A DNA stretch of 64,000 nt from the NCBI GenBank assembly GCA_965249725.1, contig OZ252251.1, positions 1 to 64,000 on the forward strand, in the 5' to 3' direction. Positions within the stretch are counted from its first letter, which is position 1. Every line of letters begins with the position of its first letter. The position numbers were made by a program. This stretch comes from Longimicrobiales bacterium. GTDB taxonomy: Bacteria > Gemmatimonadota > Gemmatimonadetes > Longimicrobiales > Gaopeijiaceae. Below, piece after piece: positions 36,001-42,000 of the stretch.

Positions 36001-39000
36001 AGCTACCCCGTCGGATCGGACTGGATCCCGTTCGGATACGCCGCATCCGATGCCATCACCTCTGATCTGATCTACGGCGGAGACGGCATCAATCGACCGG
36101 ACCGGCCCAACAACATCTATCCGACCCTCGCACTGGAGCACCGCATCGTCGTCGTAGAGGACGGCGACCTGGCGGGAGGTTCCAGCCGAGCGCTGCAAGC
36201 CGATCCTCATTTCAAGGCGTCGGTGGCCGCCGGCCGGGGAGCGTTCGGGTTCATCGTGCTCCTAGGAGACGACCGTGAACTACCTGTTCTGTTCGCCGAA
36301 ACCAGAGCCGCGCTTCGTATTCCCGTAGCCGCGGTACGAGGTGAGGCTGCAGACCGGATTCGGCAGGCCGCCCGCGCCGGTGCGACCGCGACGCTCCGGA
36401 CATCCGTGGCCCCCCGCACGGCAGAGGCCCGCAACGTGGTCGCACTTCTCCCGGGGTCCGACCCGACCTTGGCCGACGAACTCGTGATTGTTGGTGCGCA
36501 CTACGATCACCTGGGATTCGGAGGCGACGGCTCACTGGATCCCGACGCGATGGGCGTGGTTCACAACGGAGCCGATGACAACGCGAGCGGGTCCGCGGCG
36601 CTCATCGAGGTTGCACAGCGACTGTCGCAGGGCTCCCGACGCCCTGCCCGCTCGGTGTTGTTCCTCGGCTTCACCGGCGAGGAGAAGGGCCTGTGGGGCT
36701 CGGCATACTACGTGAGGAATCCGCTCATCCCCAACGAACGTTCGACGGCCATGCTGAACATGGACATGGTAGGCCGCCTGGAGGGCCGCACGCTCACGGT
36801 GATGGGAGTGGGCACCGCCGAGGAGTGGACGGACGTTCTCACCAAAGCGAATCAAGCGCGGGACCAGCCCCTGAGCATCGCCACCGCTCCAGACGGCTTC
36901 GGCCCCTCGGACCACTCCTCCTTCTACGGTGAGGGAATCCCCGTCCTGCACTTCTTCTCCAACACCCACGAGGACTATCACCGGCCTTCCGACGACTTCG
37001 AGAAGATCGACGCCGAGGGCCTCGAGGACATCCTCGAACTAGTGACCGAGGTGGCCCTGGCTGTGGCGGGTGAGGAGGGGTCGGACGAGAGGATCGCGAT
37101 TACCCCCACCGAGGCGGTCGAGACTCCGGCCCACGGTGAGGTGTCGTCGAGCTCGAGTTCGAGTGGTGGATACGGGCCCTACCTGGGATCGATCCCCGAT
37201 ATGGTGCCCACGGACTTCGGGCTGCGCCTGTCCGGCGTCCGCGAAGGCAGTCCGGCCCAAGAGGGCGGGCTCCGGAAGGGTGACGTGGTCATCGAGTTCG
37301 GCGGGAAGGAAGTCGGTGACATCTACGCCTACACCTACGCGCTCCGGGAGCACGCTCCGGGTGACGAGGTGGACATAATAGTGCTGCGGGACGGCGCCAG
37401 GGTAACGCTGACGGTCACTCTGGGAGACCGGCGCTAGAAGGACGGGCCGGGCCAACGCCGACGGACATCCCAGGTCGGCGGTGGTCCCAGGTCGGCGGTG
37501 GTCCAGGATCGGCGTGGCGGGCTCGTCAGTCGGCGTCCGTAACCTTCCCTCCGAGCAGGTCCAGCTGGCCGGGCGAGCCCTCAGTAGCCGGCTCCCGACG
37601 TGCTCCGGCCTCTCCGTAGGCCCGCGTCACCTCCACCACCCTGTCGCCACCCTTCAGTTTCATCAGCCGACGCCCTTGGGTCCGTCGCCCCTGCGCCGGC
37701 ACGTCATCGACCACCAATCGCGTGACCTGGCCACCAGCGGTGACGATCATGACCTCGTCGCCCTCCAACACTTCGAGCGCAGACACGAGCGCACTCTCGT
37801 CGCCCGTCGGAACCGCCATGGTGCCTAGCCCGCCCCGTTTCTGGAGTGGAAAATCACTCACCTCAGTCCGCTTTCCGAGTCCCTCCTCGGTAACGCTCAT
37901 CACCCAAGCATCCCGGCGAATGAGGAGCAGCCCCACGACGATGTCCCCCTTCTTCAGATCGATTCCCTTCACACCCTGAGCCGTCCGCCCGAGCACGGAG
38001 AGGTCCGACTCGGGAAAGCGAATGGCTCTTCCCGACTTCGTTATGAGCATCACTTCTCCCGTCCCGTCAGAGAGCCGGACGTCGAGTACTCGGTCTCCGT
38101 CCTTCACACCCGAGGCGATCATTCCGCCGGCGCGCGGATTTCCGAACTCTGAGAGCTTGGTCCGCTTCATGACACCCTTCTCGGAGACGAACACGACCTC
38201 GCGCTCGGCACTCAGGTCATCCGCTGCCACCATGGTCACGATGGCATCACCACGGTCCGCCCGGGTCAACGCGTAGATGGACTGGCCCCTGGACGCCCTT
38301 CCTCCTTCGGGCACGTCCAGGACCGGAAGGAAGTGGACATGCCCTCCCTCGGTAAACGCGAGAAGCCATCCCTGCGTTCGCGCGACGAATATCCGTTCCA
38401 GGTAGTCGTCCTCGAAGCGCTCCATTCCGGCCAGAGCCTTCCCTGAGGACACGCGGCGACGGTAGAGGTGCATGGGGATGCGCTTGATGAATCCTTCGTG
38501 GCTCACCGTGATGACCACGTCTTCGTCCGCCACCGTGTCCTCCACGGCGACCTCCTCGGACTCATCGTCCTCCAAGATCACCGTGCGCCTATCGTCCCCG
38601 TACTTCTCGACGAGCTCATCGAGCTCCTCGAGCATGATCTCCAGCTTCCGGGCCTCGCTCTTGAGAATGCCCTTCAGCTCCTTGATGGTCGCCTTGAGCT
38701 CCTTGAGTCGCTTCTTGAGCTGGTCCTGCTCGAGGGCCGTGAGCTTGGCGAGACGCATGTTGAGAATGGCGTCGGCCTGGGTATCAGAAAGGCCCAGCAA
38801 GTCTCGTAGCCTCTCCGAGGCCTCCGATCGGTCCTTGGACTTCCGGATGATAGAGATGACCTCGTCGATGGCGTCGAGCGCCGCCACGAGCCCCTCCACG
38901 ATGTGCTTCTCCGCCTCGGCATGCTCCAGGTCGTGACGTGACCGCCTCTGGATGACCTCGATGCGATGGTCCCTGAAGCGCTCGAGGAGCTCGAGGAGTG

Positions 39001-42000
39001 TGAACTCCTTCGGCTCCCCACCATCGAGAGCAATCATGATGGCCCCGAAGGTGGACTGGAGGCTGGTCCTCTTGTGGAGGAGCTGGATCACCTTGGCGGC
39101 GATCGCTCCCCTCTTCAGCTCGACAACGAGCCGCAGTCCGTCGCGGTCCGACTCGTCGCGGATGTCTGAGATTTCGTCGGCTCGGCCCTTCCGTGCGAGG
39201 TCGGCAATCTGGTGAATGATCCGCGACTTGGAGACGGCGTAGGGAAGCTCTGTGACGACGAGCTGCTCCCTGCCACCCCTGAGGGCCTCCTTGACGATCC
39301 GGGCCCGCATGACGATCCGGCCTCGGCCCTTCTCGTACATATTGCGGATCCCGTCTCGGCCGACGACGAACCCACCGGTGGGAAAATCAGGACCCGGCAG
39401 GTGGCGCATCAAGACGTCCAACGACGGCTCCGGTTCTTCGATCAGAGCCCTGAGGGCGGAGGCCACTTCACGGAGGTTGTGAGGGGGAACGTTCGTGCTC
39501 AGTCCCACTGCGATCCCCGACGAGCCGTTGATCAGCAGGTTCGGCACCCGCGAAGGCAGAACGGTCGGCTCGGTTCGCTGGCCATCGAAGTTCTCAGCGA
39601 CCTCGACGGTCTCCTTCTCGATATCGGCCAGAATCTCCTCGGAGATCAGCGCGAGCTTGGCCTCGGTGTACCGGTACGCCGCAGCCGAGTCCCCGTCGAT
39701 CGAACCGAAGTTGCCCTGTCCGTCCACGAGTGGATACCGAAGCGAGAAGTCCTGAACCATACGGACCAACGCGTCGTAGACGGCCGAGTCTCCGTGGGGG
39801 TGATACTTGCCGAGCACGTCTCCGACCACCGTCGCGCATTTCTTATAGGGTCGATCCGGCCTCAGTCCCAATTCGTGCATGGCGAAGAGAATCCGCCGGT
39901 GAACGGGCTTCAGCCCGTCCCGCACATCCGGCAGAGCCCTCTGCACGATCACGCTCATGGAGTAGTCGAGGAATGATTCACGCATCTCCTCCTCGATGAG
40001 CCTCGGGAGGATGCGCTCGCGGGTCTGGGCCGTCATCACAACTCCTGCTGAGCCGAAGGCAAAGCGAAAATGGGCGCCTGATGACGCCACGTTGGGCGTA
40101 CGATCTCAGGTTCGCCGAGGCAAATCAAGCCGGGATCAAAAGGAAGAGCCGCGAGTCCTTTTCGACTCACGGCTCTCAGGTCCGTATAGGGACGAAGGCA
40201 GGGGATCAGCCTCCCTGGGCGCCCCCCTCGGCCAACGCCTGGAGTATGCGTCCCTTCATCTCCTCGGAGGCACGCCCGTCCTTCTGCGAGCGTCCCAGGG
40301 CCTCGATGAAGTGCTTCTCGAACTGAGCCCTCGGGTAGCATGCCTTGCAGACGTCCAAGTGCCGGCGCACCTCTTCCTCCGATATGCCGTCCAACTCACC
40401 ATCCAGGTATTCGAATAGCCTGGCGGACGCCTCGTCACACGAGATCATTCCCCCCGCGGGCTCGCCGCCGTTGCCCTTCGCGGAAAGCCCGAGCAGTCGT
40501 TTCAGCCTCTCGAAAGCACTCACCTAAGCGTCCCCCACTGCTTCGGAGATGTATCCCATCTCCACGGCATATGCATGGAGTCGATCCTGGAGCTGTCTGC
40601 GGCCCCTGAACAGTCGACTCTTAACAGTCCCGACCGGAATCTCCATGATCTCGGCTATCTCGTTGTATGAAAGGTCCTCGAGGTCAGATAGCACCACGGC
40701 CACCCTGTACTCGTCGGGCAGATCATCGATGGCGCGAAGAATCTCGTCGTCGACGATCGAACTGAAGAACTCACCCTCTGGATCGGCACCCTTGGAGGCT
40801 GCGAACACCGGAGCTTCTCGGGACAGAGCCTTGGGATCCTCGTAGGCCGTCTCCGTCAGGATCTCGTCGTGGCGTTGTCCCCGCTCTCGCTTCCGGAGGA
40901 ACACGTTCCTGCAGATGGTGAAGAGCCAGCTCTTGCATCGCGTTCCCGGCGTGTACTGCTCCCAAGCTCTGAAGGCTCGGAAATAGGTGTCCTGTACCAG
41001 GTCCTCCGCGCCATCCTGGGTTCCAGCCAGACGGAGGGCGAACCTGTACACGGCATCCATATGGGGGATCGCTTCCTCGAGGAAGCTCGCCCCCTGCTGG
41101 TTCACGTCGTTCGGAAGTGGTTCGCTGCTCGTCACAGGTCTCGGCGCAGAGTGATGCAGAATGAAGACACGGTGAAGCTAGTTGGTTCCAGATCAGTCCG
41201 GAAAGACGAACTCCCTAGCCAACTCGTCGGTGACCGGCCCCTCGGTCACCAGTTCGATCAGGGCCTGCATCTCCCGACCGAGATCTTCGAGACGTGACAG
41301 CACTGAGAAGGCGTGCGCGAAATCGAAGTACGCTGCGACCGCTCCTTCGTGCGCGGGATGGGTGGTCGTGACGGTGGACTCCATCTCCTCTCGGAGGAGC
41401 TCTACGATGACCGCCACCGTCGCACGGAGGGCCCGCTGCTCAGCGAGCGTCCCGATGGACAAGTCGCCGCTCAGGTGGGGGAGGAGGGCGGCAACCCGCT
41501 CGCATACCTCAGGTGGGGCGGCAACGATCCCTGCTTCCGGCGCGTAGCCGTCGAGGATCTGCCTGGCACCAGCCTTCAGTGCCGTCAGTTCCTCGAAGTT
41601 GCAGTGCACGATCACGGCTCGCTCCCCGTTGCTGGGCTTCCCCCTCCTTATCTACATATTTCATGGCGTGATTGTTTCTGCAAGCACAGCGTTCAGTTCA
41701 GGGTTCAAGCACGGTGCTTTGGCCCAGTGTGCTAGCCCAGGCTTCAAGCAAGAGCGCCCCGGAGCTTCGGAGGTCCGTCGACGACCAGAGGAATGGAGAC
41801 GTGGTGTTCTCCGTCGACCTTGACGTCGAAGCTGTAGCGACCGGGCTCCGGGAACACGAGTCCGTCGAGATTGAGAACATGAGGGACCCGGATGCCCTCT
41901 CCCGCATCCGAGCCACCCCCGAGCTGCATCTCTCCGTTCAACGACAGCACCTCAGCCCCGTCCGGATCCGAGAGACGGATCTCCATCTCGTGCGTCCCCA

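Follow-up and report, generated by a model that had tools for sequence, protein, structure and literature searches.

The Longimicrobiales genome analyzed here (G000) encodes two A subunits of type IIA topoisomerases, a canonical GyrA and a paralog without the GyrA box that we term A2, together with one GyrB. The gene for A2 lies in the window studied, a stretch of 64,000 nucleotides. In the textbook picture, bacteria possess either two complete enzymes of this class, gyrase plus a topoisomerase IV (Topo IV), or one all-purpose gyrase. The features of A2 suggest a chromosome-unlinking enzyme that would borrow the motor of gyrase and follow the replication fork. In the reading that we favor, and that we give about an even chance of being correct as a whole, A2 would form a Topo IV-like enzyme that shares GyrB with gyrase and is tethered to the beta-clamp.

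A2 and the topoisomerase genes of the genome

Profile searches and alignments identified A2 as a type IIA A subunit, with a PF00521 core that contains the catalytic Arg-Tyr pair and the DNA-gate residues; its reading frame is intact and all catalytic residues are present (Table 1). The protein scored 1001.5 with the curated gyrA model (cut-off 877), passed the cut-offs of TIGR01063 and PRK05560, and remained under both parC HMM cut-offs (661.7 versus 813 and 541.9 versus 629). In the alignment of 73 paralogs, the equivalents of R121, Y122, I174, and G170 were invariant, and R32, H78, and H80 were kept in 71, the remaining ones being gaps or X. In databases, the relatives of A2 are named 'DNA gyrase subunit A'. 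Since annotation pipelines label A2 proteins as plain GyrA, these go unnoticed in annotations and can distort phylogenies based on gyrA.

Table 1. Features of the A2 gene and protein (positions in the window)
Feature	Position	Strand	Evidence and remarks
A2, box-less GyrA paralog (type IIA topoisomerase A subunit)	37526..40036	-	836 aa; HMM match; start ATG at 40036 chosen from the alignment of relatives
Breakage-reunion core (winged helix, tower, coiled coil/C-gate)	38531..40036	-	HMM match and alignment
HPHGD motif, active-site helix region	39788..39802	-	Alignment
AAAYRY with catalytic Arg-Tyr (residues 118-123)	39668..39685	-	Aligned to E. coli R121/Y122; invariant in 73/73 paralogs
Six-bladed beta-pinwheel C-terminal domain	37619..38530	-	AlphaFold2 model (pLDDT 91.7) and Foldseek
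Blade-1 segment RRRVSSGK in GyrA box position	38438..38461	-	Sequence; part of a helix in the model
Blade-5 box-like motif QKRGGLG	37823..37843	-	Kept; 58/73 paralogs, 76/95 box-bearing proteins
Tail, 30 residues, probably disordered	37529..37618	-	pLDDT mostly <50
QLDLL (residues 824-828), fits the published pentameric beta-clamp-binding motif	37553..37567	-	Sequence

The canonical gyrA gene is located at G000:C3:1845565-1848156; its product has the box QRRGGRG and an acidic tail and is 52% identical to A2. The GyrB of this genome passes the gyrB cut-offs and fails the parE cut-offs. No second GyrB-like sequence was found by tblastn, phmmer --max, or Toprim search in the genome, which is 95.8% complete, and the same assembly yielded no ParE, ParC, Topo VI-B, or Topo III. 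There were only four Toprim matches, including one for GyrB and one for TopA, and only one type IA topoisomerase. The complement claimed in the genome-wide survey's note, namely, two A subunits, one B subunit, and no ParE, was thus recovered.

The dN/dS ratios of close pairs ranged from 0.08 to 0.33 for A2 and from 0.07 to 0.30 for the canonical copies, and A2 is under purifying selection. As a contamination check on A2, GC3 was compared and amounted to 0.81 versus 0.85 and 0.84. Contamination or a pseudogene was ruled out by the presence of the same pattern in 19 single-contig genomes, by a subtree that follows family lines, and by the low dN/dS. A scan of about 1.5 kb per side for most of the 73 loci revealed no conserved neighborhood of A2; after exclusion of antisense frames of A2, the largest flanking clusters comprised at most 13 of the 73 loci, mostly from one family.

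In a Foldseek search with the model of the A2 C-terminal domain (CTD), the best matches were CTDs of GyrA proteins together with that of a Topo IV, which is six-bladed. As a counterpoint to our reading of A2, the CTD fold fits those of GyrA at least as well as that of ParC.

Distribution and origin of the paralog

Among the 151 genomes of the order, 118 contained two A matches, 25 at least three, and 8 only one; the assemblies of all eight consist of 240 to 930 contigs. A single B match was present in 145 genomes, two were found in 4, and none in 2. The proposal that the paralog is fixed in Longimicrobiales agrees with these data, at least two A matches being present in 143 of the 151 genomes and in all 19 single-contig ones, each of which had one B match. 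The same note had reported that the paralog was found nowhere else in the phylum, which proved incorrect: a box-less A was detected in 16 of 185 phylum genomes outside the order. The carriers are all 13 genomes of family f7 (12 of them in addition to a canonical copy), G196 (family f6), and G267 and G320 (both family f5), and each has one B match. G157, G222, G238, and G284 (split genes), G275 (two box-bearing copies), and G313 were not counted as carriers despite two matches, and 161 of the 185 outside genomes had one A match. A single A suffices for most families of the Gemmatimonadales type, and A2 is thus dispensable in relatives. Of 20,690 profile hits, the best 150 gave no evident paralog from beyond the phylum; those of the 150 with an A2-type blade 1 were closest to the A2 proteins of Gemmatimonadetes.

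In the trees, A2 nests within Gemmatimonadota GyrA, and the paralogs also cluster when the CTD is omitted. A duplication within the order was rejected, a clade of the order's two copies having a p-AU of 1e-7. Because these two copies do not form a clade and families f6 and f7 possess the same paralog, A2 is older and wider than the order. The origin by GyrA duplication that had been proposed in the survey's note therefore stands, whereas its confinement to the order does not; gyrA would have been duplicated, giving rise to A2, in an ancestor that Longimicrobiales shared with families f6 and f7. The position of the f5 copies varied: they grouped with the other paralogs in most analyses, were not resolved in one, and were placed beside their own canonical copies in another, and a clade of all f5 copies had a p-AU of 0.042. 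An f5-type copy, WP_075071674.1, is filed under Gemmatimonas phototrophica and has no such tail. The single GyrA of family f9, a branch immediately outside the duplication, combines the full box with a QLxL core in the tail (3 of 3 tails, versus 0.06 expected).

Box, tail, and probable partner of A2

As the initial survey had described, A2 keeps the catalytic Tyr but lacks the GyrA box. AAAYRY is at residues 118-123, and RRRVSSGK takes the place of the blade-1 GyrA box, Q(R/K)RGG(R/K)G. The box is missing in 73 of 73 paralogs, a figure that is partly definitional since its absence in blade 1 defines the class, and the blade-5 box is mostly kept. Loss of the blade-1 box abolishes supercoiling and not decatenation, and in Mycobacterium tuberculosis the blade-5 box helps decatenation (excerpt of PMC8216471). 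Without the blade-1 box, A2 is expected to behave like Topo IV, by decatenation and relaxation, and not to wrap DNA for supercoiling; we consider such an activity of A2 with GyrB probable. The blade-1 segment of the order is a conserved basic replacement, not a deletion, with an aromatic-x-R-R/A pattern in 55 of 57 paralogs, and the canonical GyrA of cyanobacteria has the non-consensus box QxRATRG, so that a missing consensus is no proof that wrapping is lost.

These two features, along with six intact blades, a K+R content that is only modestly lower (median, 41 versus 46), GyrA CTDs as top structural matches, and scores above the gyrA cut-offs, would suit a second supercoiling-competent gyrase composed of A2 and GyrB. 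In such an enzyme, the basic blade-1 helix would replace the box, and the clamp motif would park gyrase at the replisome for the removal of positive supercoils. We regard this as unlikely, given that the blade-1 loop in f7 is about 7 residues shorter and contains few or no basic residues, that only 33 of 73 paralogs have a Pro at the position aligned with E. coli Pro636, and that substitution of the box or loss of a single charge abolishes or weakens wrapping in the gyrases studied (excerpt of PMC8216471).

The tail of A2 contains the C-terminal QLDLL that the survey's note had reported (residues 824 to 828), inside a region of low pLDDT. The published clamp motif is Q-aliphatic-x-[L/M]-[F/L] or a hexamer, often in a disordered acidic tail (PMC11139829), and this source backs the consensus on which the survey's note relied. 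Of the 57 A2 tails of the order, 13 contained the strict, published motif, where shuffling gave an expectation of 0.17; the counts for f7 tails and for canonical partners were 4 of 13 and 0 of 62. A relaxed pattern, composed post hoc after the tails had been viewed, was present in 43 of 57, 11 of 13, and 0 of 62, respectively. The tails of the canonical partners are equally acidic, and only 1 of 85 tails of unrelated box-bearing GyrA proteins contained the motif. It keeps its terminal position although the tails span 14 to 471 residues. Similar motifs were found in the same genome in DinB (QLGLF, 38 residues before the end) and in an RNase_T/DnaQ-type exonuclease (QLSLL), in agreement with the initial description, as well as in RuvB (QSSLF); such motifs also lie near the ends of unrelated proteins, a peptidase and RsfS being among the 9 hits in 3211 heuristic gene calls. 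The clamp pocket, placed by mapping onto the E. coli list (PMC11139829), is invariant in 21 DnaN proteins of the phylum (R150, L153, T170, G172, H173, R174, L175, P240, V245, and M365). Binding of the A2 tail to the beta-clamp is thus predicted, and we hold it to be likely. In the literature searched, we found neither a mention of a clamp-type motif on such a topoisomerase subunit nor a direct clamp tether that brings a bacterial decatenase to the fork.

The motif may instead be incidental or serve another partner, in which case A2 would share GyrB and be Topo IV-like but lack a clamp tether. We judge this improbable: of the 57 order paralogs, 14 have no such motif, even in relaxed form, or a degenerate one, as do G196 and the two f5 copies (G267, G320), and the cyanobacterial counterparts are devoid of it, but it is strongly enriched, stays terminal while tail length changes freely, is absent from all 62 equally acidic partner tails, and in A2 matches the published consensus exactly.

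There is only a small chance that A2 functions mainly in mixed A1/A2 dimers, as an adaptor that lends gyrase a clamp-binding tail or tunes wrapping, with no separate enzyme. In favor of such dimers, A2 and the canonical copy are 75% identical in the winged-helix part, the most highly conserved region and DNA-gate half; against them, identity drops to 49% in the C-gate/coiled-coil dimer region. A gyrase with one CTD still supercoils, according to the title of PMC6061840, whereas B. subtilis GyrA dimers are reported to be very stable and non-exchanging in an excerpt of PMC12041858, which contains nothing on mixed GyrB/ParC enzymes.

With a single B subunit in the cell, A2 would team up with GyrB, which is the simplest reading of the gene set and, in our judgment, very probable. 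Cleavage by the catalytic Tyr requires the Toprim domain of the B subunit. Considering this requirement, the catalytic residues all kept under selection, and the presence of only four Toprim matches in the genome, it is very improbable that A2 works without GyrB, for instance as a factor in DNA binding or repair, or with an unrecognized partner such as a B subunit whose divergence hides it from searches, even though A2 is located outside any gyrB operon, no neighbor is conserved between families, and very remote proteins can escape HMM searches.

In the shared-GyrB, clamp-tethered reading, an A2(2)GyrB(2) enzyme would exist alongside ordinary gyrase. QLDLL in the disordered tail would dock in the peptide pocket of the beta-clamp, and this docking would bring A2 to DNA that has just been replicated, in the wake of the fork, where sister strands intertwine. 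A more tentative extension, with somewhat less than an even chance, is that a wrapping gyrase and a clamp-tethered decatenase that trails the fork take turns in using one GyrB motor, the ancestral features having been split such that copy 1 retained the box alone and copy 2 the motif alone.

Comparison with known systems

If the favored reading is correct, A2 would represent a type IIA topoisomerase of bacteria which is recruited directly by the beta sliding clamp. The lineage-wide set of two A and one B subunits provides a natural test of whether the CTD of the A subunit alone determines if an enzyme supercoils or decatenates. The same set also tests an idea under discussion for a long time, namely, that duplication of gyrase and loss of the box gave rise to Topo IV, possibly on several occasions, which has been posed as an open question (PMC2647321).

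Two A genes and one B gene are likewise present in Synechocystis, where the second A subunit, Sll1941, is box-less, keeps the catalytic motif, and is accompanied by the single GyrB Sll2005. Sll1941 has been detected by proteomics (PMC6560206), and GyrB sharing as a decatenase has already been conjectured for it (PMC9825172); the sharing of GyrB is therefore not new in kind. In 29 of 71 sampled cyanobacterial genomes, we found two core-length A matches, accompanied by one B in 27 cases and by two adjacent B in 2. The cyanobacterial A2 is the sister of cyanobacterial GyrA (100/99), and a common origin was rejected, a joint clade with Gemmatimonadetes A2 having a p-AU of 0.0003. The layout described here arose independently of that in cyanobacteria, and both cases together would, if our reading is correct, illustrate a repeated route to Topo IV, caught before duplication of the B subunit. 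In contrast to Gemmatimonadetes A2, Sll1941-type proteins have a far more diverged CTD and a C-terminal clamp motif in 0 of 31 tails; the relaxed motif was present, inconsistently, in 4 of 31 (1.2 expected). A clamp motif in the cyanobacterial second A subunits, hinted at by one Synechocystis linker, was thus not upheld across these 31 tails.

The single type IIA enzyme of Aquifex aeolicus combines a gyrase-derived core with a box-less CTD and has Topo IV-like activity, and its B subunit, when combined with GyrA of E. coli, supports supercoiling (excerpt of PMC8216471), which shows that a single B can work with both kinds of A. Aquifex has that enzyme only, whereas here the box-less A occurs alongside canonical GyrA. 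Like GyrA, A2 is six-bladed in the model and passes the gyrA cut-offs, but it has no blade-1 box and has a clamp-type motif in its tail. By analogy only, vertebrate Topo II-alpha is a decatenating type IIA enzyme that is tied to PCNA by short motifs (excerpt of PMC2742182); unlike A2, it is a eukaryotic homodimer with PIP/APIM motifs and an unrelated C-terminal region.

Topo IV (ParC2ParE2) of E. coli and Firmicutes likewise has a box-less A subunit beside canonical gyrase, and its decatenase role is the one expected for A2; its CTD (1wp5) is six-bladed like the CTD model of A2 (TM 0.82). In E. coli, it is SeqA and MukBEF, rather than a clamp motif, that position Topo IV (excerpt of PMC11253446). 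A2 differs from Topo IV in that it has no dedicated ParE, scores below both parC cut-offs, and falls within Gemmatimonadota GyrA.

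Type II topoisomerase genes and their distribution

The paralog A2, a GyrA-derived subunit with no blade-1 GyrA box in its C-terminal domain (CTD), is an open frame of 836 residues, in which Pfam places the topoisomerase core at residues 33 to 473, followed by C-terminal repeats. It scored 1001.5 bits against TIGR01063 (gyrA; cut-off 877) and fell under both parC HMM cut-offs. Whole-genome tblastn and phmmer revealed one further A gene, on contig C3, with 52% identity to A2, the box QRRGGRG, and an acidic tail. The single B gene (647 aa, located after recF) was above the gyrB and under the parE cut-offs, and in this genome, rated 95.8% complete, tblastn (next E = 1.4) and phmmer --max retrieved no GyrB-like sequence other than GyrB itself. 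There were four Toprim family matches, namely, TopA, GyrB, and frames of 623 and 258 aa, assigned to primase and RecR only on the basis of their lengths. The genome encodes one type IA enzyme and had no matches to Topo VI-B. Directly upstream of A2, on the same strand, an ECF sigma factor gene is paired with one for a zinc-finger anti-sigma factor; each of these genes is near the paralog in just 7 of 73 loci.

Coordinates of the features discussed (G000, genome of the window; G115, comparison genome)
Feature	Sequence	Position	Strand	Locus
A2, box-less GyrA paralog	Window	37526-40036	-	
ECF sigma factor and zinc-finger anti-sigma pair	Window	40206-41135	-	
Host (housekeeping) clamp gene	G000:C1	163292-164398		
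Divergent dnaN-like frame	G000:C1	528744-529847		
Divergent dnaN-like frame	G000:C2	58690-59793		
Divergent dnaN-like frame	G000:C3	2942683-2943786		L250
RuvB	G000:C3	2413617-2414660		L283
Matches to the two split A genes	G115:C1	2420228, 3124084, 1917777, 3354980		L059

The A-subunit core (PF00521) matched twice in 118 of the 151 genomes of the order Longimicrobiales, at least three times in 25, and once in 8 fragmented assemblies, and the B subunit (PF00204) matched once in 145, twice in 4, and not at all in 2. Since the number of matches is not the number of copies, proteins were fetched for 61 genomes of the order (that of the window and 60 others). A complete box-less A subunit was present in 57 of them; the copy of G041 is truncated, and G017, G045, and G104 showed further fragments only, with sequences outside the fetched set. 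The box-bearing copy was also fetched and confirmed in 44. Seven genomes flagged as unpublished (G002, G030, G081, G141, G204, G286, and G305) were counted in the domain tallies only and excluded from alignments and trees.

Outside the order, PF00521 matched once in 161 of 185 genomes, twice in 21, and not at all in 3. Among the 27 genomes followed up, box-less copies turned up in every one of the 13 f7 genomes, in one f6 genome (G196), and in two f5 genomes (G267 and G320, from a genus with eight sampled genomes). The genome-wide survey's note, which reports no such paralog elsewhere in the phylum, is therefore not borne out on this point. Each of these genomes has one B match, and B matches in 43 outside genomes amounted to one in 42 and a split gene in 1. 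An exact protein look-up, which found 8 of 10 queried proteins, linked family f2 to Longimicrobiaceae, and for each of the two G267 copies it gave an identical protein filed under Gemmatimonas phototrophica; the database name of A2 relatives is plain "DNA gyrase subunit A".

In most f7 genomes, including G205 (L095), the paralog lies approximately 8 to 10 kb from gyrB and faces it, with unrelated genes between; several cyanobacterial genes for a second A subunit lie 5 to 8 kb from gyrB. The tail-less second A of G267 (L105) adjoins genes resembling an ArsR regulator and a metallophosphoesterase. In G115, a single contig, each of the two A genes is broken near codons 100 to 128 with its N-terminal piece far off, reflecting either misassembly or recombination of the paralogs where they resemble each other most. 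The canonical-type A of G052 (L131) is long-branched, its box reading HHRGGKG, and G275 has two full-length box-bearing GyrA genes (L004 and L031) and one GyrB, through either contamination or recent duplication.

Origin and conservation of the paralog

Trees based on the core only, excluding CTD and tail, were built with FastTree (168 of the 170 proteins fetched, without two that are truncated) and with IQ-TREE under a mixture model (64 selected rows). In the former, the box-less copies all group, and their families are arranged as in the canonical, box-bearing copies. In the latter, the paralogs of the order, f6, and f7 form one clade (100/97) within the Gemmatimonadetes GyrA clade (98/96), with f9, the branch just outside the duplication, lying outside the latter clade; the canonical copies were not resolved as a single clade. 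In a 40-row tree of core and CTD with the box columns removed, the paralogs (99) were sister to the canonical copies (92). A duplication within the order was rejected, also with 40 rows, by a constraint joining its two copies (p-AU 1e-7). Given this rejection and the sister clades, the duplication is older than the order. It took place in the common ancestor of the order, f6, and f7, or else earlier, followed by a single loss on the stem of f4/f5/f8. The two f5 copies have long branches and an unstable position, and they occur patchily, a pattern that suggests that they were transferred or duplicated separately.

At the positions of E. coli R121, Y122, T123, G170, G173, and I174 in the alignment, all 73 paralogs are invariant, and the equivalents of R32, H78, H80, G81, and D82 are conserved in 71, the remainder showing gaps or X. 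For close pairs, dN/dS (Nei-Gojobori; some dS >1) was 0.08 to 0.33 in paralogs versus 0.07 to 0.30 in canonical copies. We conclude that A2 is a real, conserved, and selected feature.

C-terminal domain and clamp-type tail

An AlphaFold2 model of the CTD (alignment of 62 sequences; pLDDT 91.7) predicts a pinwheel of repeating blades, with a helix over the former box position and a low-confidence tail. In Foldseek, GyrA CTDs ranked at the top (TM 0.82 to 0.88) and the six-bladed Topo IV CTD 1wp5 was near (0.82); since both match nearly equally, the fold does not decide on function. In the order, a conserved basic segment takes the place of the blade-1 box, whereas in f7 this region is shortened; a box-like motif in blade 5 is retained in 58 of 73 paralogs. 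Loss of the blade-1 box is reported to abolish supercoiling but not decatenation, which in M. tuberculosis is helped by the blade-5 box (PMC8216471). As canonical cyanobacterial GyrA reads QxRATRG at this position, loss of the consensus alone is no proof, and A2 and GyrB might instead form a second wrapping gyrase. In the genome of the window, the two copies are 75% identical over the winged-helix part, and the figure declines to 52% for the tower, 49% for the C-gate part, and 39% for the CTD. This gradient fits a common B partner, separate homodimers, and an altered DNA-wrapping domain; the rival arrangement would be mixed A1/A2 dimers.

For the motif that binds the beta-clamp, PMC11139829, in which neither topoisomerase nor gyrase is mentioned, gives the form Q-aliphatic-x-[L/M]-[F/L] and, alternatively, a hexamer. 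This published motif was present in 13 of the 57 paralogs from the order, where shuffling predicts 0.17, and in 4 of the 13 from f7; a relaxed pattern, composed after the tails had been inspected, was present in 43 and 11, respectively. No pattern matched any of 62 canonical partners, and neither motif occurred in G196, G267, or G320. Among diverse profile hits, the relaxed motif was found in 1 of 85 box-bearing tails of at least 8 residues (0.35 expected). The motif is terminal regardless of tail length (14 to 471 residues). The tails of L145, L089, and L084 (f2) have grown to 205 to 471 residues with the final ELDLF retained, and at least two of them are rich in Pro, Ala, and Lys. Single-copy GyrA proteins combine the box with a QLxL core in 3 of 3 cases in f9 and 3 of 19 in f4/f5/f8, the full published motif being present in none; this small sample hints that the ancestral GyrA may have had both box and motif core.

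In the genome of the window, 9 of 3211 heuristic gene calls have a similar motif at most 35 residues from the end. A2, RuvB, and a DnaQ-type exonuclease are among the nine, but so are a peptidase and RsfS. A rival reading gives the tail of A2 a non-clamp role. DinB carries QLGLF 38 residues from its end, and the pocket residues of the host clamp are conserved. The extreme C terminus of RuvB reads QSSLFE, a clamp-type motif. Besides the housekeeping clamp there are three divergent dnaN-like frames of equal length, and the single one read follows a gene resembling a phage recombinase, which suggests that a prophage or integrated element encoding its own clamp is present in multiple copies. The GyrA tails of L229 and L211, from small cyanobacterial-phylum genomes with one core A match, contain the clamp-motif-like QTSLL and QTKLI.

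A proposed shared GyrB and known systems

In the most likely picture, two enzymes share one GyrB, the canonical GyrA-GyrB pair being responsible for supercoiling and the A2-GyrB pair for strand passage without wrapping. Clamps persist behind the replication fork, and through putative binding the A2 pair would be attracted to those on the new DNA there. The remaining rival gives A2 a B-independent role. The Aquifex B subunit is reported to supercoil together with E. coli GyrA (PMC8216471). E. coli Topo IV is described as acting behind the fork via SeqA and MukBEF (PMC11253446), and PCNA-binding motifs are described for vertebrate Topo II-alpha (PMC2742182).

Openly accessible main texts, searched mostly by title, yielded no paper that describes A2 from Gemmatimonadota or reports a clamp motif for any bacterial GyrA or ParC, so that the clamp-type tail has no counterpart in the literature searched; supplementary clamp-motif tables could contain one. 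In Synechocystis, a second GyrA-like protein (Sll1941) exists beside a single GyrB, which is conjectured to pair with it as a decatenase (PMC9825172), and Sll1941 has been argued to be ParC-like (PMC6560206). Of 71 sampled genomes of the cyanobacterial phylum, 29 combine two core-length A matches with a single B gene (one B match in 27; two adjacent matches, read as an intein-split gene, in 2). The cyanobacterial second A carries clamp motifs only inconsistently, in 4 of 31 linkers and in none of 31 tails. It is sister to cyanobacterial GyrA in the 64-row tree, and its union with the Gemmatimonadetes A2 in one clade was rejected (p-AU 0.0003; 37 rows). A repeated origin of Topo IV-like enzymes is left unsettled in PMC2647321. 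The A2 set is a new, independent case of a layout that, until now, had been no more than a conjecture for cyanobacteria.
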